Source: Eledone cirrhosa
Lineage: Eukaryota
NCBI GenBank assembly: GCA_964016885.1
Contig: OZ024740.1
Coordinates: 18,352,001-18,416,000 of the forward strand
DNA length: 64,000 bases
Reading direction: 5' to 3'
Below, piece by piece: positions 13,399-59,694 of the stretch. Position 1 is the stretch's first letter; each line of letters begins with the position of its first letter. The notes beneath the pieces were generated by a model, which made no database searches, was not told the DNA's origin, and was given only the letters and a program-made list of their open reading frames with translations. Position numbers and translations under genes: made by a program.

Positions 13399-13739
13399 TT
13401 GACTGACTTGTCATTTTATCAGTCAGATGTTCAAATGATAGTGCAAAACTCTTCACCCCGTCCCGTCTCGTCCTAATAAACCACTTTTCCTATCAACAGG
13501 TACGATTCGTTGCTGGTCTCGTAGAATTCTGTGATATCGACGCCAATTCCATACTTAGGATGTCTGAAGGTCACGAAAGCACGCCTTTGGTTGAGATACA
13601 CAAACCCCCACAAACCCCCACAAACCTCCTTGATAAAGATAATTCGGCCCTTTTACACTATCACATTGATCTAGATAAATTAGAACACATACATTGGACC
13701 ACACACATACATGTGAACAGTCACTAAGCCAAATAATTG

Positions 13740-16700
13740 TATACACACAGCCACAGACACACACAGCCGCACACATATTTACAGCCACACACACATCTAC
13801 AGCCACACACAGCCGCACACAGCCAAACAGCCACACAGAGCCACAGAGCCACTCACAGCGACACAGCCACACACAGCCACACAGCCGCAGACAGCCACAC
13901 ACAGCCACAGCCACACACAGCCACACACAGCCACGCAGCCACACACAGCCACACAGCCGCATACAGCCTCACAGTCACACACAGCCACACAGCCGCATAC
14001 AGCCTCACACAGCCAGACACAACAACACACAGCCACAAACAGCCACACACAACCTCACACAGCCACACAGCCACACACAGCCACACACACACACAGCCAC
14101 ACACAGCTGCACACAGCCACACAGCCACACACAGCCACATACAGCAGCACACAGCAACACAGATCCACACAGCAACCCAGAGCCACACACAGCCACACAC
14201 AGCCACACAGCAACACAGCCACACACAGCCAAACAGCCACACAGAGCCACACACAACCACACAACCACTCACAGCCACACACACAGCTACACCCACAGCC
14301 ACACAGCCACACAGCCACACACAGCCACACACACAGTACACACAGCCACACAGCCACACAACCACACACAGCCACACACACACACAGCCACACACAGCCA
14401 CAGACAGCCACACACAGCCACACACACAGCCACACAGAGCCGCACACAGCCACACACACAGCCACACACAGCCGCACACATCCCCACAGCCACACACAGC
14501 CACACATCCACACACAACCACACACAGCCACATAGCCACACACAGCCACACAGCCACACACAGCCGCACATAGCCACACAGCCACACACAGCCACATACA
14601 GCCACACAGACTCACACAGACACTCACAGCCACACACAGCCGCACACAGCCACACACAGCCACACACAGCCACACACACACAGCCACCCACAGCCACACA
14701 CACATACAGCCACACACAGCCACAAACAGCCACACACAGCCACACAGCCACACACACACAGCCACCCACAGCCACCCACAGCCACACACAGCCGCACACA
14801 GCCACACACAGCCACACACAGCCACACAGAGCCACACACAGCCACACACAGCCGTACATAGCCACACACAGCCACACAGCCACCCACAGCCACACACAGC
14901 CAGACACAGCCACACACAGCCGTACACAGCCACACACAGCCACACACAGCCACACACAGCCACCCACAGCCACACACAGCCACACACAGCCACCCACAGC
15001 CACACACACAGCCACACACAGTCACACAGCCACACACAGCCACACACAGCCACACAGCCACACACAGCCGTACACAGCCACACACAGCCACACACAGCCA
15101 CCCACAGCCACACACAGCCACACACAGCCGTACACAGCCACACACAGCCGCACACAGCCACACAGCCACACACAGTCGCACACAGCCACACACAGCCACA
15201 CACAGCCACACACAGCCACACACAGCCACACACAGCCACCCACAGCCACACAGCCACACACAGCCGCACACAGCCACACACAGCCACACAGCCACACACA
15301 GCCACACACAGCCACACAGCCACACACAGCCACACACAGCCACACACACAGCCACACACAGCCACACAGCCACACACAGCCACACACAGCCACACACAGC
15401 CGCACACAGCCGCACACACAGCCTCACACATCCACACACATCCACACACAGCCACACACAGCCGCACACAGCCAGACACAGCCGCACACAGCCACACACA
15501 CAGCCTCACACAGCCACACACAGCCACACAGCTACACACAGCCATACACAGCCACACACAGCCACACATAGCCACACAGCCACACACAGCCACACACAGC
15601 CACACACAGCCACACACAGCCACACAGCCACACACAGCCACACACAGCCGCACACAGCCACACACAGCCACACACAGCCACACACAGCCACACACATCCA
15701 CACACAGCCACACACAGCCACACAGCCGCACAAAGCCACACACAGCCACACACAGCCACACACACAGCCACACACAGCCACACAGCCACACAGCCACACA
15801 CAGCCGCACAAAGCCACACACAGCCACACACAGCCACACAGCCACACACAGCCACACACAGCCACACACAGCCACACACAGCCACACACAGCCGCACACA
15901 GCCACACACAGCCGCACACAGCCACACACAGCCACACAGCCACACACAGCCACACATCCAAACAGCCGCACACAGCCACACACAGCCACACACAGCCACA
16001 CAGCCGCACAAAGCCACACACAGCCACACACAGCCACACACAGCCACACAGAGCCATACAGCCGCACAAAGCCACACACAGCCACACACAGCCACACAGC
16101 CGCACAAAGCCACACACAGCCACACACAGCCACACACAGCCACACACAGCCACACACAGCCACACAGCCGCACAAAGCCACACACAGCCGCACAAAGCCA
16201 CACACAGCCGCACACAGCCACACAGCCACACAGCCGCACAAAGCCACACACAGCCGCACACAGCCACACACAGCCACACACAGCCACACACAGCCACACA
16301 CAGCCACACACAGCCACACACAGCCGCACACAGCCACACAGCCACACAGCCGCACAAAGCCACACACAGCCACACAGCCACACAGCCACACACAGCCACA
16401 CACACAGCCACACACAGCCACACACAGCCACACACAGCCACACACAGCCACACACACAGCCACACACAGCCACACAGCCACACACAGCCACACACAGCCA
16501 CACAGCCACACACAGCCACACACAGCCACACACAGCCACACACAGCCACACAGCCACACACAGCCACACACAGCCACACAGCCACACACAGCCACACACA
16601 GCCGCACACAGCCACACACACAGCCTCACACAGCCACACAGCCACACACAGCCTCACACAGCCACACACACAGCCACACAGCCACACACAGCCACACACA

Positions 16701-18381
16701 GCCACACAGCCACACACAGCCACACACAGCCACACACACAGCCACACACAGCCACACAGCCACACACAGCCACACACAGCCACACACAGCCGCACACAGC
16801 CGCACACACAGCCTCACACATCCACACACATCCACACACAGCCACACACAGCCGCACACAGCCACACACAGCCGCACACAGCCACACACACAGCCTCACA
16901 CAGCCACACACAGCCACACAGCTACACACAGCCATACACAGCCACACACAGCCACACATAGCCACACAGCCACACACAGCCACACACAGCCACACAGCAA
17001 CACACAGCCACACACAGCCGCACACAGCCACACACACAGCCTCACACAGCCACACACAGCCACACAGCCACACAGAGCCACACACAGCCACACACAGCCG
17101 CACACAGCCACATACACAGCCTCACACATCCACACACAGCCACACACAGCCACACAGCCACACACAGCCACACACAGCCACACACAGCCACACAGCCACA
17201 CACAGCCACAAAGCCACACAGCCACACACAGCCACACACACAGCCTCACACATCCACACACAGCCACACACAGCCACACAGCCACACACAGCGACACACA
17301 CAGCCACACACAGCCGCAAACAGCCACACACACAGCCTCACACATCCACACACAGCCACACACAGCCACACAGCCACACACAGCCACACACAGCCACACA
17401 CAGCCGCACCCAGCCACACCCACAGCCACACACAGCCACACAGCCACACACAGCCACACACACAGCCTCACACATCCACACACAGCCACACACAGCCACA
17501 CAGCCACACACAGCCACACACACAGCCACACACAGCCGCACACAGCCACACACACAGCCTCACACATCCACACACAGCCACACACAGCCACACACAGCCA
17601 CACACAGCCACACACAGCCGCACACAGCCACACACAGCCGCACACAGCCACACACAGCCACATACAGCCACACACAGCCGCACACAGCCACACAGCCACA
17701 CAGCCACACACAGCCACACACAGCCACACAGCCACACACAGCCACACAGCCACACACAGCCACACACAGCCACACACAGCCACACACAGCCACACAGCCA
17801 CACAGCCACACACAGCCACACACAGCCACACAGCCACACACAGCCACACAGCCACACACAGCCACACACAGCCACACACAGCCACACAGCCACACACAGC
17901 CACACAGCCACACAGCCACACACAGCCACACAGCCACACACAGCCGCACACAGCCACACACACAGCCTCACATATCCACACACAGCCACACATAGCCCAA
18001 CAGCCACACACAGCCGCACACAGCCACACACACAGCCTCACACATCCACACACAGCCACACACAGCCGCACACAGCCACACACAGCCGCACACAGCCACA
18101 CACACAGCCTCACACATCCACACACAGCCGCACACAGCCACACAGCCACACACAGCCACACACAGCCACACACAGCCGCACACAGCCACACCCACAGCCA
18201 CACACAGCCACACAGCCACACACAGCCACACACAGCCACACAGCCACACACAGCCACACAGCCACACACAGCCACACACAGCCACACACAGCCACACACA
18301 CACAGCCACACAGCCACACACAGCCACACACAGCCACACACACACAGCCACACACAGCCACACACAGCCACACACAGCCAC
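13740..18381. repeat. About 4.6-kb satellite of CAGCCACACA with 8- and 12-nt variants
   Basis: Continuous array, more degenerate at the left end. It accounts for all the long HTQP/CVAV ORFs. Confidence 0.97.
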
Positions 18382-18853
18382 TATCTCAAAAAACCAGATA
18401 CTTTCATAAATATTTTTTTACAATTGGGTAAAGAGAGTACACCCATATTTGGGTATCGGAATCCCCAGATGAAACGGTATTTTTCACCGCCAAAACATCT
18501 ACGATTCAGTCTGACTAGCTGTTGAAACGGCAAGAGCTCAGCCGTCGGGATCCAGACTCTTTCTTATAACCATACTTTACTACCCCAAGTATAGAGTACT
18601 CCGGTGACTAATGGTCTAAACAGGTTTTTACTGTATCCATCTTGATTTATATACATCTATCTATCTATCTATCTATCTTGATAGAGTAAGACACGCTTCG
18701 CATCGGCTCCGCTATTCCATCGGGATTTACCCTTACTATTGTAAGTACCGGATAAATTTTTTAGTGCAACACATTTGGAACACTAACCCCTGTTATTTAG
18801 GGAAACATTTTTGCATTTACCCCCTTTTTAGGGGGTAAAATAAATATCTATTT

Positions 18854-20717
18854 TTGCCGAAAAATTTCTTTCTTGGCAGCATGGCGGAAAAGATGGCAGA
18901 CATGTCTGCCATTAGCTCTGCCACGCCCCCCAAGTCTGAAGAACAAAAAATAATTACAACAAAATTAGACATTGAAACAAACAAACAAAATGAAAAAACA
19001 AATGTTAAGGAAAATGAGCAAACAGAAAACAAACAAACAGAAAATAATACAAATAACGACAGGGCAACTTTCGCCCAGAAAACAAAGCAATCCATTACAT
19101 ACACACCAATTGACCTAACTGCCGCCAGAGAAAAACTGGCCGAAGCAAAGAAACATATTGTTTTGGGGGAGAACGGAATGTTTTCCATTAACTCCCCCCC
19201 AGAATTCAAGAAAGCCAGAGCAGAAAACACAGTTATATACAGAACTATACTAAACCAGTCAAGAAAGCCAGCACAGCCCAGCCAAATGGAAATAGAGTTA
19301 GTCCTAAAAGACTATATGAAGAATATTCTCTTCATACGAAAGGACCGACTCTATGGCAGCATTTCGGTCCTAACAAGAGACAAAGAAACGGCTGTTCAGC
19401 TTTCCCTAAGCCCACTCTCGTCGACAACATATAGCTTCTATCCCTCCTACATGGGTAGAAGAACACAGAGAATAAAAGTAAAAACAATGCTGCCCACAAT
19501 GGACTTCTGGTGGGCTATTGCTGGCTTCATTGATATGGGCGAAGACACTATGCTGTCAATGGGGAAGGCAACTGGAGATGCGTTCCTGGGAATGGGCCTC
19601 GACATACTAGTCCAAATGAGGCCCGAAAGAATAGCACAAATCCCGGATCGCATCTGGCTGGATGACCTTACCCCAATAGACATAATTGTAGAGGGGAGAA
19701 GACCAGCATGCTATTTATGCATGGAAAGGGGACACGTTAAGGCTAACTGCCCGAAACGTATCCCCCAAAAAGGACTATTGCCCACACCCACCACAAACAG
19801 TACACCAGCACCACCCACCTCCAAAAATACACTAATACCACACACAGCAAACAAAATACAGACACCACCAACCACAAACACAACACAAACATCACCACCA
19901 CCAGCACCAAACACAAGCACGACACAAAAATCACCACCACCAACCACAACACAAACATCACCACCACCATTACCAACCACAAGCACGACACAAACATTAC
20001 CACCACCACCACCACAAAACCCATTCCAAACAAATAATAAAAAAAAACAGTAACAAATCTACCCCTCCCGCAAAAAAAAAACAACCACACAACACGTCCC
20101 TCCCACCTAGCGCTGAAGAGTTTCCCCCAACTTCTGAAGAAGAAGGAGGAGAAGCCTTCAGACAAGTTAAAAGAAAAAAAAGAAAACACACACCCAGCAC
20201 ACCACAAATAACCCACACACAAACACCAACTCCAATCAAAAACACCCCACCCTCAACAAACAAAAATAAATCTGCGCCTCCCCTCTCCGAAACATTGACA
20301 GCATCACAAAAAAAGACGTTGCAATACACATATATAAATAAAGAAAACAAAAAACTGGTTAAATTAATAAACAATAACCCTATGGTGCAGACCGAAGGGC
20401 CAAACTTTATCTCAACAGAGAACTTCACCCATTTAAAAATGATAAAGGTCCCTCTGGACCTTTATCGTTCCTTAAAAGAACAATTTAGACGGGACGTGAG
20501 CCCCCCCTGTTTAAAACCGTTGAATCGCGTCCTCTTGAAAGATTTCCCCATAACCGCCCCTCTCCCTGACACAACTCCAAATACCCCAACCCCACCACAC
20601 ACGTGTACCCCCACACCACCACAAAACATCCCTCCACCCAACACACCTGATGCCATGGAAATTACGCAACCCGGAGAGGTAAGTGCTTTTCTTTCTTCAC
20701 TTTCAACACCAAAATAG
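18854..20717 (+). CDS. LINE ORF1 (CCHC zinc knuckle, Pro/Thr-rich tail), +1 frameshift in the A-run at about 20040
   Basis: CYLCMERGHVKANC. Copy 2 reads through the same A-run. The first ATG is at 18881. Confidence 0.85.
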
Positions 20718-20722
20718 ATCAA

Positions 20723-23700
20723 TTGAGAGTTGGCTGTTTGAACGCGCGTGGCCTGAGCTCAGCTTGGAAGCAAGCAAAGCTTCTAAGTGACCTCAGGTCA
20801 CAAAGTATAGATGTGATGGTTGTTTGCGAGAGTCGGATCAGCAGCGTGAGACAGCTGGCGCCCGCCTTCGATGACTTTGAGATGCACGCATCTCTCTGTC
20901 AACCCGGAGGCGGGGGGGGGGAGTTGCCGTACTGCTGGATAAACGTCTGACTCTCGACGTACAGATTGTTCACTCGGACCCGGGGGGTCGATTACTGGTG
21001 CTGGACGTCGGAGGTGGTGAAGGCGGGGCTTTCAGACTGGTCGGTCTTTATGCTCCCTTCGGGGCGGAGAGAGCCGACTTCTTCCAACGTCTGGAGACTT
21101 TTCTAGGAACGTCGCGTTCCCTGCTTTTAGTGGGGGACTGGAATGGAATCCTAGATGCGCGTTGGGACTATGCAGGGGCATGTCCCGATAGAGGGGGGTG
21201 TAGCAGCCTCAAGGGGTTACTCGATCGATTCGACCTGGTCGATAGATTTCGACTAGATTGTCCAACTGCGCCAACCTGGACCTGGGCAAACCGCAGTGGA
21301 CAATCTAGATCGTACCTAGATAGGTTTTTGGTTAGGAGTAAGGATAGGGACGTATTTAGTTGTCCAGAACTGATCATGGTTGGCTATTCAGATCACAAAT
21401 TAGTGACCTGCGTGGTCAACCTTGATAGAACGCATAGACAGGGTCCCGGTTACTGGAAGATGAACTTGTCCTTACCGACAAAGAAAGATTACAGAAACCG
21501 GATTAGTAGCTTAGTTAAGATGCGGTTGACGGGAGCGATCGTCAACAGTAGGTGGTGGATATCTCTAAAGAGAGAGATTAGAGTAAGTTCGATAGGTTAC
21601 AGTAAGGAACTAGCGGCGAATAGAAATAGGAGGGAAAGGGAGTTAACAGATAAACTAGAAGAGGCGATTAGGAGCGGAGACGTAGCCAGAGTGTTAGCGA
21701 CGAGAACGGCATTGAGCCAGTTCTTTGACGCGAAGCACGAAGGCTGCGTTGTCCGAAGTAAAATACGTGCTTTAGGAAACGAGGGGACCAAAGCTGTTAG
21801 CTGGGCCCGCGTGACAGAAGCCAAGAGTGGGATTAAATCCACCATTCGGTCTTTGCGAGACCAGGATGGACGGGTGATCCTTGAACCTGAGCGAATGTGC
21901 GAGACCTTTCAAAGGCACTTTGCTCGACTGTTCGGAGGTGGCGGGGGGCCGGACGGGGATGTGGACTTCGGTCCATACCTCGACGGTCTACCGCGTCTTT
22001 CGAGCGGCGAAGCGGAGTGCTGCGAAGGGCCAATCACAGCCACTGAAATCGGGGAAGCGCTCAGCCAATGCAGCAGACGCAAATCCCCGGGTCTCGATGG
22101 TCTACCATACGAATTTTATTTAGCTATGCCGGTCTTGTTCTCCGAACTCCTCGAGGCTGTCTATTGCAACTGGCAACAGAACGGGAGAATTCCCTGTTCT
22201 GTGACCAAGGGCGTGGTCACGCTAGTGAGGAAGGACGAGAGCAAGGGGGACGACTTAAGTAACTTTAGGCCCATAACTCTGCTGAATGCAGAGTTACAGA
22301 TTTTGGCCAAGGTGTTGGCGAAGAGGTTGGCGCTTGTGGTGGGTGGTTTGGTGGGAGACGCGCAGACATGCGCTATCCCGTCCAGGTCCATTCACGACAA
22401 CCTCCACCTCATGCGATACATCATAGAGAGGGTTGGCTACGAACCCGGCTTTGGTGGGGCCCTGATCAACTTGGATCAATCTAAGGCGTTCGATAGGGTC
22501 GACCATGGTTACCTGGATGCGGTGCTAGCGGCGGCGGGCTTCGGACCCGTTTTCAGGGGCTGGATTTCTGCCATGCACAGTGGCAACATCTACTCTAGGA
22601 TTAAAGTAAACGGCTACCTCTCGGAGCCGTTTCAAATCACCCGATCCATCAGACAGGGGTGCCCCCTCTCCTCCCTTCTGTACGTATTGACTCTCGAGCC
22701 ACTGCTGCGGAAGTTGGAGTTGCTGCGGGGCATACCCCTGGAACCGGGATTGCACAAAGCGGTCTCGGCCTATGCCGACGACGTAACAGTAATGGTGGCG
22801 GACGCCTCGGAAATCGGGGCGATCGCCACCCTACTGGAGGAATACGAAAGGCTGACGGGGGCTAAGCTGAACCAGGACAAGTCAGTCGGTTTGCAACTCG
22901 GAACGTGGAGGGGCAAACCGATGCCGTTAGACGGTGTCGTCGGGCGGTGGACGGAGGGCCCGGTGAAGCTGCTCGGGGTCTGGTTCGGACCGGACCTCCA
23001 GGTGGAGAAGAATTGGGGCGAGGTGACGAGCAGGGTGTTTGCGCTGACCCAGAAGTGGGCCAAGTGCAAACTATCACTGAAAGGTCGGGCGGAGGTGACG
23101 AACGCTTACATAGCGTCCGTCATCTACTACCGCCTGACCGTCGTGCCTTGCCCCAAGGAAAAGCTCACCATCATGGAACGCATGCTCTTCCAGTTCCTCT
23201 GGAAGAAGCGGCCTCCCATGGTGAGGAGATCCATCTGCTGCCAGCACCCTTCGAAAGGAGGGCTGGGTATGCCGTGGCTGTTGATGCGTAGGCACGCATT
23301 GAGGCTACGGCATCTACAGGTATTCCTCAACGGTCAGCCGGTGTGGGCCCCGTTTGTGAGGCGAGCCTTCCCACAGCTCGTCTCGCTCACCGAACTGCAA
23401 TCCTGGGTGAAGCAAAGACCGAGAAAACTGGGCAACTGGCACACTGAGTGTGCCCAGGCGCTCACGGCTATCTGGCAAGCGGACCCGACTGTCAGTGGAG
23501 AATCCACCTCGACATTCTATAGAGGGTTGGTGGCTAGCAGGGGCGACGACACCCTTGGAGAGTCGCTAGGCATGGAGGAGGACGAACTGGCCAGCCTGTT
23601 CGGTAGAACTTTCGGCCCGGGACCCATGGACAACTTCCAGAGGTCCCTAGCCTGGCAGTGTTACCGGGGGGCTCTGCCCGTTCGAGAAAAGCTCTACAGA

Positions 23701-24153
23701 CACGGGCGCCCGGGCAGGGATCCCGCGAAAAAGATCTGTCCCAGATGCGTGCGCGACGAGGAAACCGTTGCGCATGCACTGGTACACTGCCCGGGCGTTG
23801 CCGATCTGTGGGGCTACGTCGAACGACTGCTGTCGCGTGTGGCGCCGATTCGATTAACCGCCGAGTCTGTGGTGAACATCAAGCCGCCTCCTCCCTTCAG
23901 AAATGAAGCAGAGGCGGTCTTTCTGTGCGTAATAGCCATGATGAAAGAGGTTGTGTGGTGGACGCGCCTGAAAGGTCTGAGGTCGGGTGACTTTCTCTCC
24001 GGCCACCACCTGGTTTACTTCTTCCGATACCACTTCGGAAGAAGAATCAGGATGGAGAGAGAAGTGCTTGGTCCCAGACAGTTTTATGAAAGGTGGGTGA
24101 AAGAAGCGAGAATGGCCCGTGTAAATGGGCCTTCTCTCTACATTGTTCTGTAG
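20723..24153 (+). CDS. LINE ORF2: APE endonuclease, RT and zf-RVT; frameshift in a G10 run at about 20912
   Basis: GCLNARGL, VGDWNG, SYLDRF, SDHK; SPGLDG, RPITLLN, DQSKAFD, RQGCPLS, YADD; CPRC..ETVAHALVHC. Confidence 0.95.
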
Positions 24154-24569
24154 GTGAAGAAGTGAAGAGGAAAGGGGGAGCGCCTCCTCTCTGGGCTTCC
24201 CCCGCGAAAAGAGTTGCACACTTTTCGGGGGTATGTGCAATCCCCAACACGCCCCCTCCCTTTTGAGGACTTTTTATTGTTATATTATTATTGTTATTCC
24301 TTTTTTCTTTACTCGATTTATGTAAACTCCCCCACTGTGTAAATGTCCCCTTCTTTTGTGCCCTCGTGGCAAATAAATAGAAATTTATCTATCTTGATAG
24401 AGTAAGACACGCTTCGCATCGGCCCCGCTATTCCATCGGGATTTACCCTTACTATTGTAAGTACCGGATAAATTTTTTAGTGCAACACATTTGGAACACT
24501 AACAGCTGTTATTTAGGGAAACATTTTTGCATTTACCCCCTTTTTAGGGGGTAAAATAAATATCTATTT

Positions 24570-26431
24570 TTGCCGAAAAATTTCTTTCTTGGCAGCATGG
24601 CGGAAAAGATGGCAGACATGTCTGCCATTAGCTCTGCCACGCCCCCCAAGTCTGAAGAACAAAAAATAATTACAACAAAATTAGACATTGAAACAAACAA
24701 ACAAAATGAAAAAACAAATGTTAAGGAAAATGAGCAAACAGAAAACAAACAAACAGAAAATAATACAAATAACAACAGGGCAACTTTCGCCCAGAAAACA
24801 AAACAATCCATTACATACACACCAATTGACCTAACTGCCGCCAGAGAAAAACTGGCCGAAGCAAAGAAACACATTGTTTTGGGGGAGAACGGAATGTTTT
24901 CCATTAACTCCCCCCCAGAATTCAAGAAAGCCAGAGCAGAAAACACAGTTCTATACAGAACTATACTGAACCAGACAAGAAAGCCAGCACAGCCCAGCCA
25001 AATGGAAATAGAGTTAGTCCTAAAAGACTATATGAAGAATATTCTCTTCATACGAAAGGACCGACTCTATGGTAGCATTTCGGTCCTAACAAGAGACAAG
25101 GAAACGGCGGAGAAGCTTTCCCTAAGCCCACTCTCGTCGACAACATATAGCTTCTATCCCTCCTACATGGGTAGAAGAACACAGAGAGTAAAAGTAAAAA
25201 CAATGCTGCCCACAATGGACTTCTGGTGGGCTATTGCTGGCTTCATTGATATGGGCGAAGACACTATGCTGTCAATGGGGAAGGCAACTGGAGATGCGTT
25301 CCTGGGAATGGGCCTCGACATACTAGTCCAAATGAGGCCCGAAAGAATAGCACAAATCCCGGATCGCATCTGGCTGGATGACCTTACCCCAATAGACATA
25401 ATTGTAGAGGGGAGAAGACCAGCATGCTATTTATGCATGGAAAGGGGACACGTTAAGGCTAACTGCCCGAAACGTATCCCCCAAAAAGGACTATTGCCCA
25501 CACCCACCACAAACAGTACACCAGCACCACCCACCTCCAAAAATACACTAATACCACACACAGCAAACAAAATACAGACACCACCAACCACAAACACAAC
25601 ACAAACATCACCACCACCAGCACCAAACACAAGCACGACACAAAAATCACCACCACCAACCACAACACAAACATCACCACCACCATTACCAACCACAAGC
25701 ACGACACAAACATTACCACCACCACCACCACAAAACCCATTCCAAACAAATAATAAAAAAAACAGTAACAAATCTACCCCTCCCGCAAAAAAAAAACAAC
25801 CACACAACACGTCCCTCCCACCTAGCGCTGAAGAGTTTCCCCCAACTTCTGAAGAAGAAGGAGGAGAAGCCTTCAGACAAGTTAAAAGAAAAAAAAGAAA
25901 ACACACACCCAGCACACCACAAATAACCCACACACAAACACCAACTCCAATCAAAAACACCCCACCCTCAACAAACAAAAATAAATCTGCGCCTCCCCTC
26001 TCCGAAACATTGACAGCATCACAAAAAAAGACGTTGCAATACACATATATAAATAAAGAAAACAAAAAACTGGTTAAATTAATAAACAATAACCCTATGG
26101 TGCAGACCGAAGGGCCAAACTTTATCTCAACAGAGAACTTCACCCATTTAAAAATGATAAAGGTCCCTCTGGACCTTTATCGTTCCTTAAAAGAACAATT
26201 TAGACGGGACGTGAGCCCCCCTGTTTAAAACCGTTGAATCGCGTCCTCTTGAAAGATTTCCCCATAACCGCCCCTCTCCCTGACACAACTCCAAATACCC
26301 CAACCCCACCACACACGTGTACCCCCACACCACCACAAAACATCCCTCCACCCAACACACCTGATGCCATGGAAATTACGCAACCCGGAGAGGTAAGTGC
26401 TTTTCTTTCTTCACTTTCAACACCAAAATAG
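24570..26431 (+). CDS. LINE ORF1, copy 2; -1 frameshift in the C-run at about 26216
   Basis: 552-aa ORF plus the 26234-26431 tail, which matches the copy 1 C-terminus. Confidence 0.85.
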
Positions 26432-26436
26432 ATCAA

Positions 26437-29400
26437 TTGAGAGTTGGCTGTTTGAACGCGCGTGGCCTGAGCTCAGCTTGGAAGCAAGCAAAGCTTCTAA
26501 GTGACCTCAGGTCACAAAGTATAGATGTGATGGTTGTTTGCGAGAGTCGGATCAGCAGCGTGAGACAGTTGGCGCCCGCCTTCGATGACTTTGAGATGCA
26601 CGCATCTCTCTGTCAACCCGGAGGCGGGGGGGGGGGGAGTTGCCGTACTGCTGGATAAACGTCTGACTCTCGACGTACAGATTGTTCACTCGGACCCGGG
26701 GGGTCGATTACTGGTGCTGGACGTCGGAGGTGGTGAAGGCGGGGCTTTCAGACTGGTCGGTCTTTATGCTCCCTTCGGGGCGGAGAGAGCCGACTTCTTC
26801 CAACGTCTGGAGACTTTTCTAGGAACGTCGCGTTCCCTGCTTTTAGTGGGGGACTGGAATGGAATCCTAGATGCGCGTTGGGACTATGCAGGGGCATGTC
26901 CCGATAGAGGGGGATGTAGCAGCCTCAAGGGGTTACTCGATCGATTCGACCTGGTCGATAGATTTCGACTAGATTGTCCAACTGCGCCAACCTGGACCTG
27001 GGCAAACCGCAGTGGACAATCTAGATCGTACCTAGATAGGTTTTTGGTTAGGAGTAAGGATAGGGACGTATTTAGTTGTCCAGAACTGATCATGGTTGGC
27101 TATTCAGATCACAAATTAGTGACCTGCGTGGTCAACCTTGATAGAACGCATAGACAGGGTCCCGGTTACTGGAAGATGAACTTGTCCTTACCGACAAAGA
27201 AAGATTACAGAAACCGGATTAGTAGCTTAGTTAAGATGCGGTTGACGGGAGCGATCGTCAACAGTAGGTGGTGGATATCTCTAAAGAGAGAGATTAGAGT
27301 AAGTTCGATAGGTTACAGTAAGGAACTAGCGGCGAATAGAAATAGGAGGGAAAGGGAGTTAACAGATAAACTAGAAGAGGCGATTAGGAGCGGAGACGTA
27401 GCCAGAGTGTTAGCGACGAGAACGGCATTGAGCCAGTTCTTTGACGCGAAGCACGAAGGCTGCGTTGTCCGAAGTAAAATACGTGCTTTAGGAAACGAGG
27501 GGACCAAAGCTGTTAGCTGGGCCCGCGTGACAGAAGCCAAGAGTGGGATTAAATCCACCATTCGGTCTTTGCGAGACCAGGATGGACGGGTGATCCTTGA
27601 ACCTGAGCGAATGTGCGAGACCTTTCAAAGGCACTTTGCTCGACTGTTCGGAGGTGGCGGGGGGCCGGACGGGGATGTGGACTTCGGTCCATACCTCGAC
27701 GGTCTACCGCGTCTTTCGAGCGGCGAAGCGGAGTGCTGCGAAAGGCCAATCACAGCCACTGAAATCGGGGAAGCGCTCAGCCAATGCAGCAGACGCAAAT
27801 CCCCGGGTCTCGATGGTCTACCATACGAACTTTATTTAGCTATGCCGGTCTTGTTCTCCGAACTCCTCGAGGCTGTCTATTGCAACTGGCAACAGAACGG
27901 GAGAATTCCCTGTTCTGTGACCAAGGGCGTGGTCACGCTAGTGAGGAAGGACGAGAGCAAGGGGGACGACTTAAGTAACTTTAGGCCCATAACTCTGCTG
28001 AATGCCGAGTTACAGATTTTGGCCAAGGTGTTGGCGAAGAGGTTGGCGCTTGTGGTGGGTGGTTTGGTGGGAGACGCGCAGACATGCGCTATCCCGTCCA
28101 GGTCCATTCACGACAACCTCCACCTCATGCGATACATCATAGAGAGGGTTGGCTACGAACCCGGCTTTGGTGGGGCCCTGATCAACTTGGATCAATCTAA
28201 GGCGTTCGATAGGGTCGACCATGGTTACCTGGATGCGGTGCTAGCGGCGGCGGGCTTCGGACCCGTTTTCAGGGGCTGGATTTCTGCCATGCACAGTGGC
28301 AACATCTACTCTAGGATTAAAGTAAACGGCTACCTCTCGGAGCCGTTTCAAATCACCCGATCCATCAGACAGGGGTGCCCCCTCTCCTCCCTTCTGTACG
28401 TATTGACTCTCGAGCCACTGCTGCGGAAGTTGGAGTTGCTGCGGGGCATACCCCTGGAACCGGGATTGCACAAAGCGGTCTCGGCCTATGCCGACGACGT
28501 AACAGTAATGGTGGCGGACGCCTCGGAAATCGGGGCGATCGCCACCCTACTGGAGGAATACGAAAGGCTGACGGGGGCTAAGCTGAACCAGGACAAGTCA
28601 GTCGGTTTGCAACTCGGAACGTGGAGGGGCAAACCGATGCCGTTAGACGGTGTCGTCGGGCGGTGGACGGAGGGCCCGGTGAAGCTGCTCGGGGTCTGGT
28701 TCGGACCGGACCTCCAGGTGGAGAAGAATTGGGGCGAGGTGACGAGCAGGGTGTTTGCGCTGACCCAGAAGTGGGCCAAGTGCAAACTATCACTGAAAGG
28801 TCGGGAGGAGGTGACGAACGCTTACACAGCGTCCGTCATCTACTACCGCCTGACCGTCGTGCCTTGCCCCAAGGAAAAGCTCACCATCATGGAACGCATG
28901 CTCTTCCAGTTCCTCTGGAAGAAGCGGCCTCCCATGGTGAGGAGATCCATCTGCTGCCAGCACCCTTCGAAAGGAGGGCTGGGTATGCCGTGGCTGTTGA
29001 TGCGTAGGCACGCATTGAGGCTACGGCATCTACAGGTATTCCTCACCGGTCAGCCGGTGTGGGCCCCGTTTGTGAGGCGAGCCTTCCCACAGCTCGTCTC
29101 GCTCACCGAGCTGCAATCCTGGGTGAAGCAAAGACCGAGAAAACTGGGCAACTGGCACACCGAGTGTGCCCAGGCGCTCACGGCTCTCTGGCAAGCGGAC
29201 CCGACTATCAGTGGAGAATCAACCTCGACATTCTATAGAGGGCTGGTGGCTAGCAGGGGCGACGACACCCTTGGAGAGTCGCTAGGCATGGAGGAGGACG
29301 AACTGGCCAGCCTGTTCGGTAGAACTTTCGGCCCGGGACCCATGGACAACTTCCAGAGGTCCCTAGCCTGGCAGTGTTACCGGGGGGCTCTGCCCGTTCG

Positions 29401-29869
29401 AGAAAAGCTCTACAGACACGGGCGCCCGGGCAGGGATCCCGCGAAAAAGATCTGTCCCAGATGCGTGCGCGACGAGGAAACCGTTGCGCATGCACTGGTA
29501 CACTGCCCGGGCGTTGCCGATCTGTGGGGCTACGTCGAACGACTGCTGTCGCGTGTGACGCCGATTCGATTGACCGCCGAGTCTGTGGTGAACATCAAGC
29601 CGCCTCCTCCCTTCAGAAATGAAGCAGAGGCGGTCTTTCTGTACGTAATAGCCATGATGAAAGAGGTTGTGTGGTGGACGCGCCTGAAAGGTCTGAGGTC
29701 GGGTGACTTTCTCTCCGGCCAACACCTGGTTTACTTCTTCCGATACCACTTCGGAAGAAGGATCAGGATGGAGAGAGAAGTGCTTAGCCCCAGACAGTTT
29801 TATGAAAGGTGGGTGAAAGAAGCGAGAATGGCTCGTGTAAATGGGCCTTCTCTCTACATTGTTCTGTAG
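26437..29869 (+). CDS. LINE ORF2, copy 2; frameshift in a G12 run at about 26626
   Basis: Same APE, RT and zf-RVT motifs as copy 1. Confidence 0.95.
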
Positions 29870-30124
29870 GTGAAGAAGTGAAGAGGAAAGGGGGAGCGCC
29901 GCCTCTCTGGGATTCCCCCGCGAAAAGAGTTGCACACTTTTCGGGGGTATGTGCAAAACCCAACACGCCCCCTCCTTTTTGAGGACTTTTTATTATTATG
30001 TTATTCTCATTGTTATGCCTTTTTCTTTACTCGCATTTATGTAAACCCCCCCACCCCTGTGTATTTGTCCCTTTCTCTTGTGCCCTAGTGGCAAATAAAT
30101 AGAAATCTATCTATCTATCTATCT

Positions 30125-30505
30125 GACAACAACTCACCTCCTTCTTTAAGTACCACTTCAGAAGGAAGGTGAGAGTGGAGAGAGAGAGGCGCTAAACCCC
30201 AGTAAATTCGCTGAAAGGTGGGTGAATGTGGCGAAAATGGCCCGAGTGAATGGGCCTTCTCTGTGTATAAACCTGTAGGCTGAGGAAGATAAACAGAGGG
30301 AAGACGGGAACACCTACAAAACGTGTTCCTAGTGTTGAGGGTTGTTCTATCCACGGGGTGTAAAACAACCCCGCAGTAGCGTTACCCCCCCCCCTAATGG
30401 GGATTTCAATTGTTTTATTTTTATATAGTTTATTGTTATTTATCATTGTTAAAGATTTTATGTAAAACCCCCGCCGTCACGTCTTGTAATGTCCCATTTT
30501 TGTAC
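30125..30505 (+). mobile_element. Short 3' fragment of a related Tx1 subfamily
   Basis: FFKYHF..ERE..ERWV..RVNGPS homology plus 3' UTR. Begins at the (CTAT)n tail of copy 2. Confidence 0.8.
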
Positions 30506-31958: not shown

Positions 31959-32254
31959 AAAAAGGGATGAAATCGAAAATGCAACTGAAGTCTTATTTTT
32001 TTTAAAAATATATATATTTATTTGGTTCCTTTACCGGTTTCGCAGTTCTTCTGCTTTTCAAAAGGTGAGTTGAGATGGAGGGTCTGTGGTTTTTCTCACA
32101 TCTGATGTGAGAAAAACCACAGACCCTCCATCTCAACTCACCTTTTGAAAAGCAGAAGAACTGCGAAACCGGTAAAGGAACCAAATAAATATATATATTT
32201 TAAAAAAAAATAAGACTTCAGTTGCATTTTCCATTTCATCCCTTTTTCTTTATA
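31952..32254. repeat. Fold-back inverted repeat (about 150-bp arms); PLE-like 3' fragment, family also at about 53966-54345 (-)
   Basis: Near-perfect palindrome centred at about 32103. Contains GAAA-CCGG-TA, the 3' half of a hammerhead. Confidence 0.85.
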
Positions 32255-46267: not shown

Positions 46268-49200
46268 CTATAAAACCTCACGGTATACAATATTCTTTGT
46301 TTTTCCATTTGGAGCAAAGGCAAAAAGGTTATTCCGGCTGCCAACTCGAGAACACCCAACGTAGAATTGTCCATGTGAGAAACATGGTTCCTCCAGGTGA
46401 AGTCCTGCAACAGATAAAGTCTGACCCTGGGACTTGTTGATGGACATAGCAAAGGCAGCACGAAGGGGAAATTGAGTTCTTTTAAAAGAATAGGGTGCAT
46501 CCACTCCTGATGTAGTAAGAGTTACCATAGGTATTAAAACATCTTCTCCTTTTCCACACCCTGACATAATCGTAGCATAAATAATGTGCTGTGACATCCT
46601 ATTGACAACAAGGCGTGTACCATTGCAAAGCTTGGGAGGAGTTATATTCCTGAGAAGTATAACTGGACATCCTTCCTTGAGAGACAAAATATGTTGAGGT
46701 AGACCAGGAATGTCCAATGAATTGAGGAATTCAATGGGATAACTGACCACATCATGTGGATCAACATTGGTATCAATAGACTTAAAAGTCATATCATTTC
46801 CAGGAAGACTTTCAAGCATTTGGCGATTAATGGCGGAGACAGTGACATTTGTAGGAGCTAATATAGCCCTCTCACACAGCCATGCATGATTGCGGTAATT
46901 ATCTACCAAGCTGGGAAAAACGGCTGCCTTGAGATCTTCGACAGTGTTAACCAGACAGCATATATTGTCGAGTGCAATGTCTCTATGCACATCTGAAGGT
47001 ACTTTGCCGTCGCCAAGAATGAGAAGGTCTTCAGCAAATTTTTCAGACACAGTATCGCCATGCAGTTGAATACGCATGTTAGTGGTCAGACGAAGTGTTG
47101 TTACCTGTTGCCACAATGGAGAAGACTTCAGGCAGGCCCGAACTTGATCCGCTCTGGTGCCCTTTGGAATAACCGGCAAAGTTTGTCGAAAGTCCCCTGA
47201 AAGCAAAAGAGTTACACCCCCCATGGTCTCCTGACAGTCTCTAATGTCTTTTAGCGTTCTATCTAAGGCCTCAATAGCTCCTTTGTGAGCCATGGTACAT
47301 TCATCCCACACAATCAGTTGGCACCGCCGTAGCAGTTCTGCTCTGGGACTATCCTTGGTGATGTCACAGAGCGGTGTTTCAGCTGATACCAAGTTAAGCG
47401 GAAGCTTAAAGGTAGAATGTGCTGTCCTACCGCCAGGAAGTAGTGTTGCAGCAATACCAGATGATGCAACAGCTATTGCGATAACTTCATTCTGTCTAAC
47501 TTTGGCAAGAATAAGTTTAGTCACAAAGGTTTTTCCAGTGCCTCCAGGGGCATCAAGAAAGAAGATACCACCCGATCGATGAAATACATAATCAGTGATA
47601 GTGTTGTATGCTAATTGTTGATCAGGAAGTAGTTTTGATTCCATTTCAAACACATATCTAGCTAGAGCATCGACATCATAAGATGTTTCTTGGATGATGA
47701 GAATTGGAATTTTATTAGAATCAGTGCGGTGGGTTTGTGGAAGACCGTATGCTGGCAAGGCATTCCCACCCATAAGGAAAATCCTGTCCTCTATATCTAT
47801 AAGCCCTTTATTGTATAAATCATCACTGAAATCTATTTCTATGTCAGGAAGTAGTAGTTGAGCCTGGTGCAGGAAGTCCTCAGACAGTTGGTTCCGAAAC
47901 TTCAACCATAATGTGTAGGGATCACAAATGTTACATAAGTGAAGAAGCTTTGCAAAGACCTCTCGTAGGCTTCCAGCTGAGTGTGATGAAGCGATCTCCA
48001 CCAAGGTTGCATCCCATCGTGAGTCATCTTCAAGCATTCCACGAGCCAAACAGGCATCTCTGTATGTAGACCAAACACGATTACTGAAAGTTCTGAGGTC
48101 CTGAAAACTGGTCGGTCCTTTTACCTCATGCAGTAGCATTCGAAGATAGAAGCAACTGTGTTGATTTGGAGGAATCGTATACACTCGCCCCAAGCAATTA
48201 GTGAATTTGATTCCAGGAACTCCAATAACTGGTTGGCCAGTCTTTCTGCGACACCATGTTTTTTTATTCCATGTGTAGTATGATGGCACCTGAGGATACA
48301 GCAATGATTTTGCGAACTCATCGTATTTGCACAGTTTGAAGAATCCAGTTAAAGTTGTCTCCCTTGGGGTCTGTGCTAATTCAGTGGCATTTTCATTGGT
48401 ATAATACACCCGTTGACCGTGTTCTAGGTGTACATCTAATTTTACAATTGAAGGGTGCCTATCATGTATTGGAAAACCAAAGATTCACCAAAAGGCCTCG
48501 CTACTACTTATGTATCGACCTACTTGGAATTGTGTTACTTCGTCTCTATTGTTTTCGTTGAGTATACCGAACGAAGCAGCGTCAGAACCTTTATTAACAT
48601 ACTTACATATGTATTTGATGCACTTGACGGAGCTACAGAATTCAACATTAATGTGTGCGTTGAAAGTACTGAGCAGGAGTGGACAATAGGGAATGATCCA
48701 TCTGTTGTCAACCTCGCCATTCTTAACCCTAGCCGTAAAACCTCCATCTTCAGGTCGCCTACGTCTATATAATGGGTAGCCATCATTGCCAGTCTGAGTA
48801 TCGCGAATAAATTGACGGGGAAATTTTTTAGTGCATCTTTTATTGCCTGTAACGCATGGTAAGTCGGTTCTAAAGCCAGGCCCACATGGACCATGCACCA
48901 TATGTGCCCTAACTTTCATGTACAAGTCCTTGTCAGTGGAAGGATCTGGTAATTCTGCAGAGATGATCCTGTCAATGTCGTTAGAACTAACCTTTGTTGT
49001 CAGCCAAATAAGAATATGAGCATGGGGGAGGCTCCTTTTTTGCCATTCGATTGCGTACATGTCACATTGAACTGGTCCGAAAACCTCACCTAATTTCATA
49101 AGATCCATAAGCTTAAGTAACTTAAGACGGAATACTCTAGCTGCGAGATCATGTCGGCGTGTGGTGTTCTGACCAGGAAGGAGTTCGTCCTCAATCTCCT

Positions 49201-54746: not shown

Positions 54747-56726
54747 ATGGTTAATTCACCTCTGCACCAAGCAGCTGAAAGCCTTCCTCACAAATTAACA
54801 CCTCACACCGACACCACCATTGTAAATGTTACTACGTTTGCCAACACTACAAAAAATATAAGCAGTAGCAATATTTTAAATTTGTCTCAAGCAGACATTC
54901 ATTTCCCACCATTACCAATGACTGCAGGTGTTAAAGCCTCCACCACCACCACCACCACCGCGACAACCACCACCCCCACCACCACCGCGACAACAGAAAC
55001 AAAAGGAAAAAATAAATCAACCCGTGATGACGAAATAATTTCAACCAAAATGGACTCTTCCACTTCCACACCGAACACCACTGACGTCACCACCACCACA
55101 ACTGAAACTAAAATTAATAATAACAAAAATAACGATAGCAACAACAACAACAATGACATTAAAAAAAACCACCCTGAGTTTTGCCAGAGTAGCAAAACAG
55201 TGCGAAGCATATACGGTAACTCAGGAGGAATTAGAAAATGCCAAACAAATAGTAAAGAAAGATGGGTACAGGGTCAGCTTCACCCCCACTTAATAAAATG
55301 GAGCATCGGCGCCTATGCACCGTGTCGTATCGAACCATAAATGTAAAATCGCGCCGAGTGGAACGGGCATCCGAGTCCCAAATCCAAAAAGCTTTGGGAC
55401 ATGTGTGGGCAAGAAAAACCCACATCAGACGTGGGCAGAAGTATGGAACCGTGGACGTGTTCCTTGAAACACCAGAGGAGGCTAGAGAACACTCCATGGC
55501 CCCATTAAGAAGTGACGACTTCACACTCGTCCCAAGCTATTGTGGCCAGAGACTCGTAAAGATCAGGGTGACCCACGTTCCACCGGCCATCGAAATTCCC
55601 TGGCTAATAGCGGCCGTCCTCGCCGGCATCGAAGCCAACACAAAGATAATAGCAATAGCAAAAGAAAAGCAGGAGAACTGGTCAGGATCTGGGATGGAGC
55701 TCCTGATCCAAGCGGACCAAAAAAGCATTGAGGAGATCCCAGAGGTAATAGACCTCACTGACGGCAGCCACCTCACCGTAATTGTCGAGGGCAGAAGGCC
55801 TAGGTGTGTCGTTTGTGGTGAAGGAACCCACCTAAGGGCTTTCTGCCCTCAGGCTAAAAGGTTGAGGCCACCTCTCCTACCCACCCCAGTGACACAACCA
55901 TCAACACCACCAGTAGCAGAGATGGCAGCAACAACTGTAGCAGCAACAACAGCAGCAACTATAACAGCAACAACCCCAGCAACAATAGCAAAACCACCAC
56001 CACCACCACCAGCAAAACCAACACCACCACCACCCAACGCTTCAGAACTAGCACCAGCGCCTACACCATCCACCACGCCACAACCAAAACTAACGCCTGT
56101 GGAGGATTTTCCACTCCCCGGCCTATCACAACTGGAGACAGATTGTGACGACGAGGAGTGGGAAACGGTATCAGGAAAAAAAGAAAAGGAAACCAAAAAA
56201 GAAAAAAATTCTCTTCCTTCCCCCTCCAAAAACAAAATAGAGAGGGAAACAAATAAATTAACAAACAAAAAAGTTAGGACAGATATGCCACCATCCACAC
56301 CAGCACCACCAACACCATCACCATCATTAACCCCAACACCACCATCACCTACACCACAAAAGTCACCAAAATGCGAAACAGAAACAAACCCACAACAAAC
56401 GCAAACAAAACAAAACAACCAAAACGATACACACTACACAGCATTAAATTTGAACAACAAGCAATTATTACACTACATCCAACACAACACCAGCATCACA
56501 GAAAAAGACTACACAACAACCCCAAAATTCACACCACCTCCACACATACAAATCACTCGCATCACACAGAAAACGTTACACGACACTAAAACAAACATTC
56601 CCCAAAGACATCGGAGAATTCCGACAAACACTCTCCAGGAGGATTTATAAGGACATCCTTCCTGAGGAGGCCACAAGCAGTGAAATGGATGGAAAAACCG
56701 TCCTTCCCCTACGAGAAGTAAGGTAA
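54747..56726 (+). pseudogene. Family B ORF1, frameshifted
   Basis: Overlapping ORFs 54747-55340 and 55262-56650; IVEGRRP plus a CCHC knuckle as in family A. Confidence 0.75.
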
Positions 56727-56760
56727 GTGGTCTTTCCCATCTTTTCCACTCCTTTTCAAC

Positions 56761-59416
56761 ATGACCTCACTCAGAATAGGCAGCATAAATGCGCGTGGCT
56801 TGGGGTCGTCATGGAAGCAGGGCCACCTGCTCAACGACCTCAGGTCACTAAACATAGATGTAGTGGCCATCAGCGAGACCAGAATCTCCGAAGCACGGGC
56901 CTTTGCACCGATCTTCGGCGGCTACGATGTGTACGCATCTCCCACCCGTCCGGGATCGGGGGGAGGAGTTGCTGTGCTTTTTCGGAGAGGTTTGGATCTT
57001 GCCATACGGGCCATCTTCCTGGACCCAGAAGGTAAGTTGGTGGTGCTGGACGTGACCAGCGGAGAGGGGCAAGCTTTCAGGTTAGTGGCCGTCTATGCCC
57101 CGACAGGAGCAGGGCGGCCTGATTTCTTCCGGCGTCTGGAGACCTTTCTTGGAACGTCCCGCTCTTTAGTGTTAGTGGGCGACTGGAACGGGATCTTAGA
57201 TGCACGCTGGGATTGTGTGGGATTAGTGGATAGGGAAGGAGAGTGCAAGAATCTCACCAACCTGCTCAGGCGTTTTGAACTGTCTGACAGGTACCGAATG
57301 GATTTCCCGAATGTACCAGTGTGGACTTGGACAAATCGCATAGGGTCATCCAGATCATATCTAGATAGAGTATTTTGTAGGGAAATAGATAGGTCTAGGA
57401 TAGGCTGTCCACAATTCAAGATAGTCAGCTACACGGACCACAAATTCGAGATCTGTGTGCTTGACTTAGATAGGCTTCATAGACGAGGACCCGGCTACTG
57501 GAAACTAAACGCGTCCTTACCAGCGCCCAAGGCCTACAGAGACCGGATTAGCGAACTAGTTAAGCGGGCGTTGACGGGGGCCATCGTCAACAACAAGTGG
57601 TGGTTTGCTCTGAAAAGTGCAATTAGAATAGAGTCCATTAGGTTTAGTAAGGCTTTAGCAATAGAGAAAAATAGAACAGAGGGAAAATTAGTTAGAAAAT
57701 TAGACGAGGCGCTTAGCAAAGGCATCGCGACCGACGTACTTGCGGCAAAATTGGCCCTTGACCAATTCTTCAATGCAAAGCACGAAGGCTGCGTTGTCAG
57801 AGCTAGGGTGCGTGCTCTCAGACACGAGGGGACGAAAGCCGTTCAATGGGCCCGAGTGGCGGAGGCGCGTCGTGGCAACAAAGCCACGATCCGGTCTTTG
57901 GTGGACCACGACGGGCGCATGCTACTCGATCCCGGGCAAATGTGTGAAGCTTTTCAGCGACACTTCGCTCAACTATTCGGGGGCAGTGGCGGGCCGGATC
58001 GAGGGATGGACTTTAGTGTTTACCTCGACGGACTGCCGCGGCTTTCGGCCACTGAGGCGGAGTGTTGCGAAAAGCCGATAACAACCGCTGAAGTACGGGA
58101 AGCAATGACTGGCTGCACAAGGGGTAAATCGCCTGGTTTGGATGGTCTGCCCTATGAACTTTACGTACAAATACCAGACTTGTTCGGAGGCCTCTTGGCG
58201 GACGTCTACTGCAACTGGCAACAGAACGGGAGAATTCCCAGCTCTGTGAGCCGAGGAGCGGTGGAGCTGCTGAGAAAGGATCCGAACAAAGGGGATAACA
58301 TAGATAATTTTAGGCCCATAACTCTGCTAAACACAGAGTTCAAGATTTTGGCCAAGGTGCTAGCAAAGAGGTTGGCGCTTGTCGTTGGTGGTCTGGTGGG
58401 AGAGGCACAGACATGCACCATTCCCGACAGATCCATCCACGACAACCTCCACCTCATGCGATACATCGTAGAGAGGGTAGCTAGGGAACCTGGCACGGGT
58501 GGGTCTTTGATCAATTTAGATCAGTCGAAAGCCTTCGATAGGGTCGACCATCGTTACCTAGCGGCAGTCCTGAGGGCGGCTGGCTTTGGGCCCGTCTTCA
58601 GAGGCTGGATCGCTGCCATGCACAGCGACATCTGCTCTGTAGTGAGAGTGAACGGTCACCTTTCGGAACCGTTCAACTTCATGCGCTCGGTCCGCCAAGG
58701 ATGTCCCCTCTCGTCCCTATTGTACGTATTGACTCTCGAGCCATTACTGCACAAACTGGAGACGTTGAGGGGGGTCCCGCGCGAACTAGGATGCGGGAGA
58801 TCCATGTCAGCATATGCGGACGATGTCACCGTAGTGGTGTCGAACGCCAAACACATCGAGGCGATCGGCACTACACTAAAAGAATACGAAGCGGTGACAG
58901 GAGCAATGATCAACCAGGAAAAGTCAGTGGGCCTGCAGCTCGGCACCTGGAGAGGCAGATCCATGCCGTCCAACAGCGTCGTCGGGCGCTGGACGGACGG
59001 ACCGGTTAAATTGCTAGGGGTCAGAACCGTCCTGCACGCACTCGTCCAGTGTTCGAGCATTGCTGACTTGTGGGTTTCTGTCGAACACCTGCTATCGCGT
59101 GTAGGACGGATCCAGCTATCAGCTGAGTCCATGGTGAGGATTGCCCCGCCCTCTTCCTTTAGCCGGGGAGAGCAGGCAATTTTTATCTGTCTGGTGGCCA
59201 TGGCGAAAGAGATAGTATGATGGACGCGTCTGAAAGGGCTGAAGACGAGCAGTTACCTCTTCGGTGATACCCTGATTAACTTTTTCAAATTTCACTTAAA
59301 AAGGAAAATCACGTTAGAAAGGGAAGTGCTCTCTTCCCAGAATTTTGTTGAAAGATGGGTGAGAGAAGCAAGAATGGCCCGAGTGAATGGGCCTACTCTG
59401 AGTATGTGCCTGTAAA
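56761..59416 (+). pseudogene. Family B ORF2 (APE-RT) with an internal deletion and a TGA at 59218
   Basis: GSINARGL, VGDWNG, SYTDHK, DQSKAFD, RQGCPLS, YADD. Homology continues to RVNGPTLSMCL*. Confidence 0.92.
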
Positions 59417-59694
59417 TTGAAGGTGGGAAACTGGGAGAGGGTACTTGCCCTGGTGGTCAGGGTCACCGTCCCCGTGGCTTTTTTTAATGAGCTTTCTCCA
59501 CAAATGTCCCTCGGAAGTCTCCCCCATATTGGGGAATTTTTCATTGCTTCTTTTGTTGTTACATCCTCCTCTGTTTTGGGGTTTTTTTACACGCAGAAAT
59601 GCCCATTTGTACCGTCCTATATTATCTTGTACTGTCCTTAATGTCTACTTTGTGTAAACCCTTGTGGTTAATAAAGAAAGCATTATTATTATTA

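Follow-up and report, generated by a model that had tools for sequence, protein, structure and literature searches.

Long interspersed nuclear elements (LINEs) need far more ORF1p than ORF2p, the products of their two open reading frames (ORFs), and the known answer to this need is inefficient reinitiation on one unspliced RNA. Splicing has a precedent in plant Ty1/Copia elements, where Arabidopsis EVD makes a spliced short GAG RNA (PMC5580714; papers are cited here for their accessible parts, to which our statements about them refer). Here we analyse a LINE in a 64,000-nucleotide stretch of Eledone cirrhosa contig OZ024740.1 (assembly GCA_964016885.1, positions 18,352,001 to 18,416,000), called the window below and used for all coordinates. 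Copy 1 of its family A is full length and lies between (TATC)n runs at 18678..24393 (+ strand); the tandem copy 2 follows at 24394..30125 (+), with 98.9% identity to copy 1, its donor at 26393 and its ORF2 stop at 29867-29869. With the microsatellite-targeting Tx1 LINEs Kibi and Koshi (PMC4494074) and the Octopus vulgaris L1-Tx1 families (PMC13282606) the element has in common two ORFs, an APE-reverse transcriptase (RT)-Cys ORF2, a CCHC ORF1, a position at simple repeats and tandem arrays. The repeat unit differs, being (TATC)n or (TTA)n here, compared with (TC)n for Kibi and (TTC)n for Koshi (PMC4494074). The present element also has a splice donor at the ORF1 end, an acceptor-like site that would frame ORF2 and a predicted clamp helix, none of which is mentioned in the accessible parts of either report (PMC4494074, PMC13282606); in those of the second, neither 'splic' nor 'intron' occurs.

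From these features we propose, tentatively and at a little under even confidence, a co-transcriptional splice switch at ORF2 of this LINE, locked by a long-range helix.

The ORF1-end donor and the hybrid junctions

At the end of ORF1, copy 1 carries GAG/GTAAGT (20676..20684, +; the slash marks the cut, and the would-be intron starts at 20679), which fits the U1-type 5′ splice donor consensus. The initial annotation had read AG/GTAAGT at this position, at 26393 in copy 2 and at 56723 in the diverged family B, and we verified all three. The family-B donor, AAG/GTAAGT (56720..56728, +), contains the ORF1 stop TAA, and the ORF2 ATG follows at 56761. Conservation across subfamilies was borne out in a clade sample of 63 elements (60 picked to span the motif variants among the first 100 matches, plus three window copies), which fall into 16 groups with 47-90% identity in the endonuclease region: AG/GTRRGT stands 5′ of ORF2 in 57 of the 63, against 43 of 1386 control windows from ORF2. 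Beyond the clade the motif drops to background level, with 1 of 33 distant L1-group loci from metagenomes (those with a readable ORF2 start, from 80 fetched) against 19 of 718 control windows. In one distant metagenome LINE, L209, a donor precedes ORF2 and a pyrimidine-rich TAG stands where ORF2 ends, a single case at the background rate.

The hexamer varies by subfamily between GTAAGT, GTAGGT and GTGAGT, and so does its reading phase in ORF1: phase 2, where it contains the ORF1 stop, phase 1, or phase 0 in family A. Family A has its donor 13 codons upstream of the ORF1 stop; in most subfamilies that stop sits inside the donor. Since the donor occurs in three reading phases, protein constraint cannot explain it and it is kept at the RNA level. 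The initial annotation had proposed scoring splice sites across families. By simple in-house scores, which leave the branch point aside, none of about 280 GT sites matches U1 better than the donor does in 11 of 14 subfamilies, and in 4 of these none equals it; among acceptors, the ORF2 stop comes first in 10 of 14. We are highly confident that the donor is a working U1 site.

Two hybrid joins, J1 and J2, go further: the donor exon of one subfamily follows without a gap on a CAG that belongs to the ORF1 end of a different copy, and AG is all that the two share. Such exact joins strongly suggest that the donor can splice and is likely used. J1 occurs in 12 copies (1 of 12 rows in one join set, 11 of 32 in a second) and has founded a small, spreading hybrid; J2 was built on J1 and is found in 2 copies, on different contigs. 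The search patterns select joins at the donor base, so no rate is derivable from these counts. The simple explanation is that tandem arrays gave read-through RNA, which was spliced and which the downstream ORF2 then copied in cis. Template switching would have had to use a 2-nt match on two occasions, each time at the same base, and is less likely. On the strength of these sequences, the donor likely splices. No such hybrid join was found for family A. Signs of ORF1 exchange are also seen in L065/L066 and L115, where near-identical ORF2 sequences come with different ORF1 ends or 5′ untranslated regions (UTRs).

That the donor opens a short intron, fusing ORF1 to ORF2 or removing the spacer between them, seems to us scarcely credible. 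One subfamily does have a strong acceptor 28-37 nt past the donor, in frame with ORF2 by hand reading. However, an RNA spliced in this way would retain ORF2 and be copied in cis, and 0 of 44 non-GT joins show it, which largely refutes the idea; moreover, most subfamilies have no AG before the ATG, and the nearby AGs of family A yield a stop or the wrong frame (again by hand reading).

The ORF2 stop and the predicted long-range helix

The ORF2 stop of family A lies in an acceptor-like context, a pyrimidine tract followed by TAG/G (24130..24154, +), which ranks first among 264 AG sites. The ending CCTTCTCTCTACATTGTTCTGTAG/G reported earlier is present at 24153 (29869 in copy 2), CTGTAG/G recurs in the three related fragments at 30278, 31565 and 42782 (the last on the - strand), and the predicted join, QPGE/VKK and a stop, reads as claimed. 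The caveat raised for family B holds too: its ORF2 stop is TAA, followed by ATTGAAG/G, and the nearby AAG (59413..59422, +) is a weak acceptor. Taken as an acceptor across the clade and ranked among about 260 AG sites, the ORF2 stop comes first in 10 of 14 subfamilies and second in one, and is weak in three. Covariation between the donor phase and the first stop past the acceptor (8 of 15, with both ends located in 43 of 62 rows) was not counted as support. A protein search with the spliced ORF1 C-termini returned 4 distant matches, none of them informative.

The sequences around the two sites are complementary. Computed on the family-A copy L093 and placed in the window by offset, the 5′ arm of the predicted helix covers the exon end, the donor, a pyrimidine tract and the ORF2 start (20664..20723, +), and the 3′ arm the ORF2 stop and the purine-rich start of the 3′UTR (24141..24207, +). 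Along the element, no window pairs better with the donor region than the ORF2-stop/3′UTR region does, and this holds in 15 of 15 subfamilies, with z from -3.3 to -9.7 against dinucleotide shuffles and 0 of 200 shuffles reaching it in each subfamily. When partners were swapped between subfamilies, the own partner ranked first in 8 of 15 and first or second in 12 of 15; the mean pairing was -63.3 for own and -49.0 for swapped partners (0 of 100000 permutations). The helix withstands competition from local hairpins in 15 of 15 subfamilies (-15 to -36 kcal/mol) and forms, with 37-55 pairs, in 9 of 11 whole-RNA folds. Both folds that miss it carry the donor GTAAGT; in two older family-A copies, whose donor reads GTAGGT, the helix does form. 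At donor position +4, pairing is G-C in 3 subfamilies and A-U in 4. A long-range helix across 3.4 kb is thus predicted, and it likely locks both splice sites. As it covers donor and acceptor, with its partner in the would-be exon 2, it would block splicing and not aid it.

Chance is a very improbable source of these features: an arginine codon, a stop and base composition would mimic a donor, and purine and pyrimidine tracts would pair by composition. AGG TAA is an ordinary ORF end, and the tracts are of low complexity. Nevertheless, the three phases and the enrichment over controls refute chance for the donor, the exact joins J1 and J2 speak against it, and the shuffle and partner-swap tests refute it for the complementarity; it may still apply to the acceptor.

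In family A the ORF1 stop TAG overlaps, as ATAG (20714..20717, +), an ATA at the place where relatives have the ORF2 ATG; the context is CCAAC ATG G in relatives and AAA ATA GAT in family A. By its sequence, family A has lost the ORF2 ATG. The 33 codons before the first in-frame ATG retain the endonuclease start motif and show 4-9 synonymous and 5-12 replacement differences from six relatives. ORF2 of family A would likely start by termination-reinitiation at the near-cognate ATA. In SART1, reinitiation requires RNA structure (PMC5972666).

The helix might be mainly a device for translation or cis preference, bringing the stop of ORF1 and the start of ORF2 to the ORF2 stop and 3′UTR for reinitiation, or for loading of ORF2p on its own RNA end, with the donor secondary. 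The SART1 requirement (PMC5972666) fits such a role, family A functions without an ORF2 ATG, and the predicted helix touches both the start and the stop of ORF2 in several subfamilies. However, this would leave unexplained the U1-compatible hexamers in three phases and the exact joins J1 and J2, and we consider it improbable.

The search for ORF2-skipped copies and a candidate mechanism

Several observations weigh against a splice switch. Three subfamilies that retain the donor place the ORF2-stop acceptor at ranks 14, 21 and 61, another AG lies at most 18 nt upstream of it in 8 of 14 subfamilies, and J1 and J2 themselves skipped it in favour of cryptic sites beyond. In just 8 of 15 groups would splicing leave an ORF1 tail of at most 3 residues. 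Two dispersed elements of one subfamily, L246 and L247, both lack the donor core and read AG/GTTCCT, and the subfamilies share ancestry, so their counts are not independent. As for the helix, it is absent from the lowest-energy folds of the youngest family-A sequence (window copy 1, and L093, whose helix fold lies 5.8 of 1690 kcal/mol above the lowest), and donor position +4 is unpaired in 7 of 14 rows.

The absence of ORF2-skipped genomic copies belongs with these points. A search of 3.0 Gb for the exact family-A junction gave 0 matches, against 426 unspliced donors, and no family-A exon end in the genome precedes a non-G base. A degenerate clade junction likewise gave 0 matches against 4,803 clade donors and 13,891 unspliced 3′ ends, with a pattern that reaches some, not all, of the subfamilies from which these donors come. 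The ORF2-skipping join is missing from the 44 non-GT joins at the clade donor, from 77 altered donors (with a pattern blind to C at the last place) and from family B, including its AAG acceptor; exon ends that continue with G and a base other than T fall outside these junction searches. The junction would fall only about 230 nt short of the 3′ end, so that truncated copies should reveal it as well. Four contig sets of unrecorded library type linked the donor to the ORF2 stop in 0 of the 15 joints listed, with 77 more outside the listing; as contigs drop rare forms and the sets may be DNA, this weighs neither way. In the smallest of these sets, single contigs span the donor (20600-20899) and the acceptor (23785-24260) unspliced.

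The initial annotation had proposed a splicing switch that could spawn ORF1-only copies. The junction searches refute the spawning of such elements. The switch itself fares better, with a conserved donor, an ORF2 stop that is the best acceptor in most subfamilies and hybrids that imply use of the donor, set against ORF1-only copies numbering zero. Spliced RNA is weakened, not refuted, by the absent copies, because L1 proteins prefer their own RNA (PMC5860796). Deletions near the donor in L123, in L244 and L245, and in one family-B copy were rejected as splices, as they miss the cut by 1-4 nt or have no AG. L244 and L245, on different contigs and 98% identical, have in common a deletion of about 550 nt from just past the donor into the endonuclease; the endonuclease-less RNA behind them likely moved at least twice.

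Could the donor serve U1 without splicing? U1 docking would aid transcription or block early polyadenylation, the helix would then hide the donor for export, the hybrids would be accidental and the acceptor look a by-product of the helix. The zero count of ORF2-skipped copies fits this, as does the retention of the donor where the acceptor is weak. A second donor-like motif, GTAAGT, which the earlier reading had missed, lies in the 5′UTR (18741..18746, +). Of the 26 intact 5′ ends left after a filter removed 37 of 63 rows, 21 carry it, compared with 34 of 520 control windows. By eye, no conserved acceptor stands between it and ORF1, and a search for splicing from the family-A motif gave 0 non-G joins, with a pattern that would miss joins beginning with G or ending in C. 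In addition, ORF1 carries 0-5 AATAAA, U1 prevents early termination in EVD (PMC5580714) and unused donors can retain RNA in the nucleus (PMC4380460). However, ORF2, which lies 3′ of the donor, has 0 or 1 AATAAA in 15 of 15 representatives and so offers little to protect; in 10 of 14 subfamilies no acceptor outranks the ORF2 stop; and the location of the donor at the ORF1 stop suits a stable ORF1-only message. We consider docking alone unlikely.

The splice switch that we prefer would work as follows. A clade-wide donor at the ORF1 end, an acceptor-like AG on the ORF2 stop and complementary flanks are present in the sequence, and the hybrid junctions strongly suggest that the donor is able to splice. 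U1 would sit on the donor while ORF2 is transcribed. Once the 3′UTR emerges, 30-60 nt past the acceptor, the helix would probably compete with splicing, hide the donor and ease export. Most RNA would remain full length, and a fraction would lose ORF2 and become an ORF1-only message; such an ORF2-skipped mRNA is plausible, although we would not call it probable. RNAs spliced early would give a near-identical ORF1p. Nonsense-mediated decay depends on the position of the stop relative to the last junction, and with their stop behind it these RNAs might escape, which we hold just short of an even chance. Spliced RNAs without ORF2 would not be copied in cis and would leave no genomic copies, and family A would translate ORF2p from RNA left unspliced, through termination-reinitiation at the ATA of the overlap. 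In the fullest form of the proposal, the lineage handles its whole RT gene like a retained intron, a self-complementary clamp that links the end of ORF1 to the 3′UTR picks genomic RNA or ORF1-only mRNA co-transcriptionally, and the same donor shuffles ORF1 ends between neighbours by splicing the read-through RNA of tandem arrays, founding hybrids. This we advance as possible, with some doubt.

The element, its surroundings and its relation to known systems

ORF1 of copy 1 (18881..20717, +) comprises an RRM/ZCCHC3-like region, a CCHC knuckle and a Pro/Thr-rich tail, with a frameshift in an A-run near 20040. A Pfam search with ORF1 gave no match; the CCHC motif is present, and atlas look-alikes with zf-CCHC and ZCCHC3/RRM score 0.90-0.92. 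ORF2 (20714..24153, +) encodes an APE endonuclease, an RT and a C-terminal Cys/His motif (CPRC..H..HC), with Pfam matches to PF03372, PF00078 and PF13966 (the last, zf-RVT, at 25.2 bits, below the 27.5 cut-off). An AATAAA poly(A) signal (24372..24377, +) precedes the (TATC)n run. The best relative of ORF2 with a solved structure is human L1 ORF2p (2e-46), ahead of R2 (6e-23), other clades being without solved structures. Among named homologs the closest, at 64%, comes from Argonauta hians, which by itself would make an octopod host likely. By its ORF2 domains, an RT nearer L1 than R2 and the CCHC of ORF1, the element is an L1-group non-LTR (long terminal repeat) retrotransposon. The label Tx1 rests on the initial annotation and on resemblance; no named Tx1 sequence was among the homologs returned by the searches.

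Both family-A copies in the window are frameshifted in homopolymer runs, and ORF2 is open in 20 of 30 other family-A copies over the 562 codons examined. In the same 30 copies (L001-L030) the endonuclease G-run that breaks the frame of copy 1 (20912-20921) has length 8 in 19 and 9-16 in ten, with one unread; it is either a frameshift hotspot or an assembly error. The best 40 genomic matches to family A are 100% identical over 421 nt and its exact donor 18-mer occurs in 426 copies, so the family is young. The wider clade, with 13,204 genomic matches to the endonuclease-start motif, is a large and active LINE group. Simple repeats stand at the 5′ flanks and 3′ ends of the copies, where tail and target are indistinguishable, and no target duplication was read. 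The 3′ repeat follows lineage in L061-L120, (TATC)n-like in A-side subfamilies and (TTA)n on the B side. By eye, a strong hairpin lies shortly upstream of the ORF1 start (about 18820-18845, and in the 5′UTRs of L061-L120), and is retained across subfamilies although its sequence differs; nothing in the window matches Rfam, which lends no support to an SL-RNA or snRNA-like 5′ end.

Elsewhere in the window, repetitive C/A-rich DNA fills about 4.8 kb just upstream of copy 1 (13679-18500) and shows long open frames and an extreme strand skew, the family-B copy lacks about 780 nt of ORF2 at 59022-59025, a Helitron Rep/helicase gene (Helitron_like_N, PIF1) is split into three frames at 46268-51059 (-), and a short inverted-repeat element was seen by eye at about 32000-32250 and at 54000-54160.

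HAL1 elements consist of ORF1 only and would match the proposed product of ORF1 plus 3′UTR; the difference is that our junction searches found no such element in this genome. EVD resembles the present LINE in that a U1 donor is conserved close to where the structural gene ends, splicing yields a structural-protein message and U1 has a second role apart from splicing (PMC5580714). It differs in being an LTR element with a short intron and early polyadenylation, where here the whole enzyme gene would be removed, and in that its case is experimental and ours predicted; no long-range lock is described in the accessible parts of that report (PMC5580714). Human L1 likewise has a conserved 5′UTR donor, and its spliced RNAs that retain ORF2 leave genomic copies (SpIREs), as those behind J1 and J2 likely did; the L1 splices studied there, however, lie in the 5′UTR and ORF1 and are dead ends, and the donor is explained by a RUNX3 site (PMC5860796), whereas ours lies at the ORF1 end and the J1 hybrid has spread. 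In SART1 and mammalian L1, as here, stop and start overlap, and caliciviral reinitiation tolerates non-AUG starts (PMC5972666), but the family-A overlap, compared by sequence, is ATAG and holds no AUG.

Among the papers searched, which took in few subscription titles and Repbase reports, no LINE was found whose ORF2 is framed as an intron or that carries such a clamp; Repbase-type annotations in supplements could bear on novelty. Even if U1 only docks at the donor, a co-evolving helix that spans 3.4 kb of LINE RNA was not found in the literature searched. If true, a switch in splicing controlled by an RNA lock would give LINEs a second way to set the ORF1p:ORF2p ratio, parallel to that of plant copia elements, and hybrids born by splicing would offer a route for ORF1 exchange between LINE lineages.

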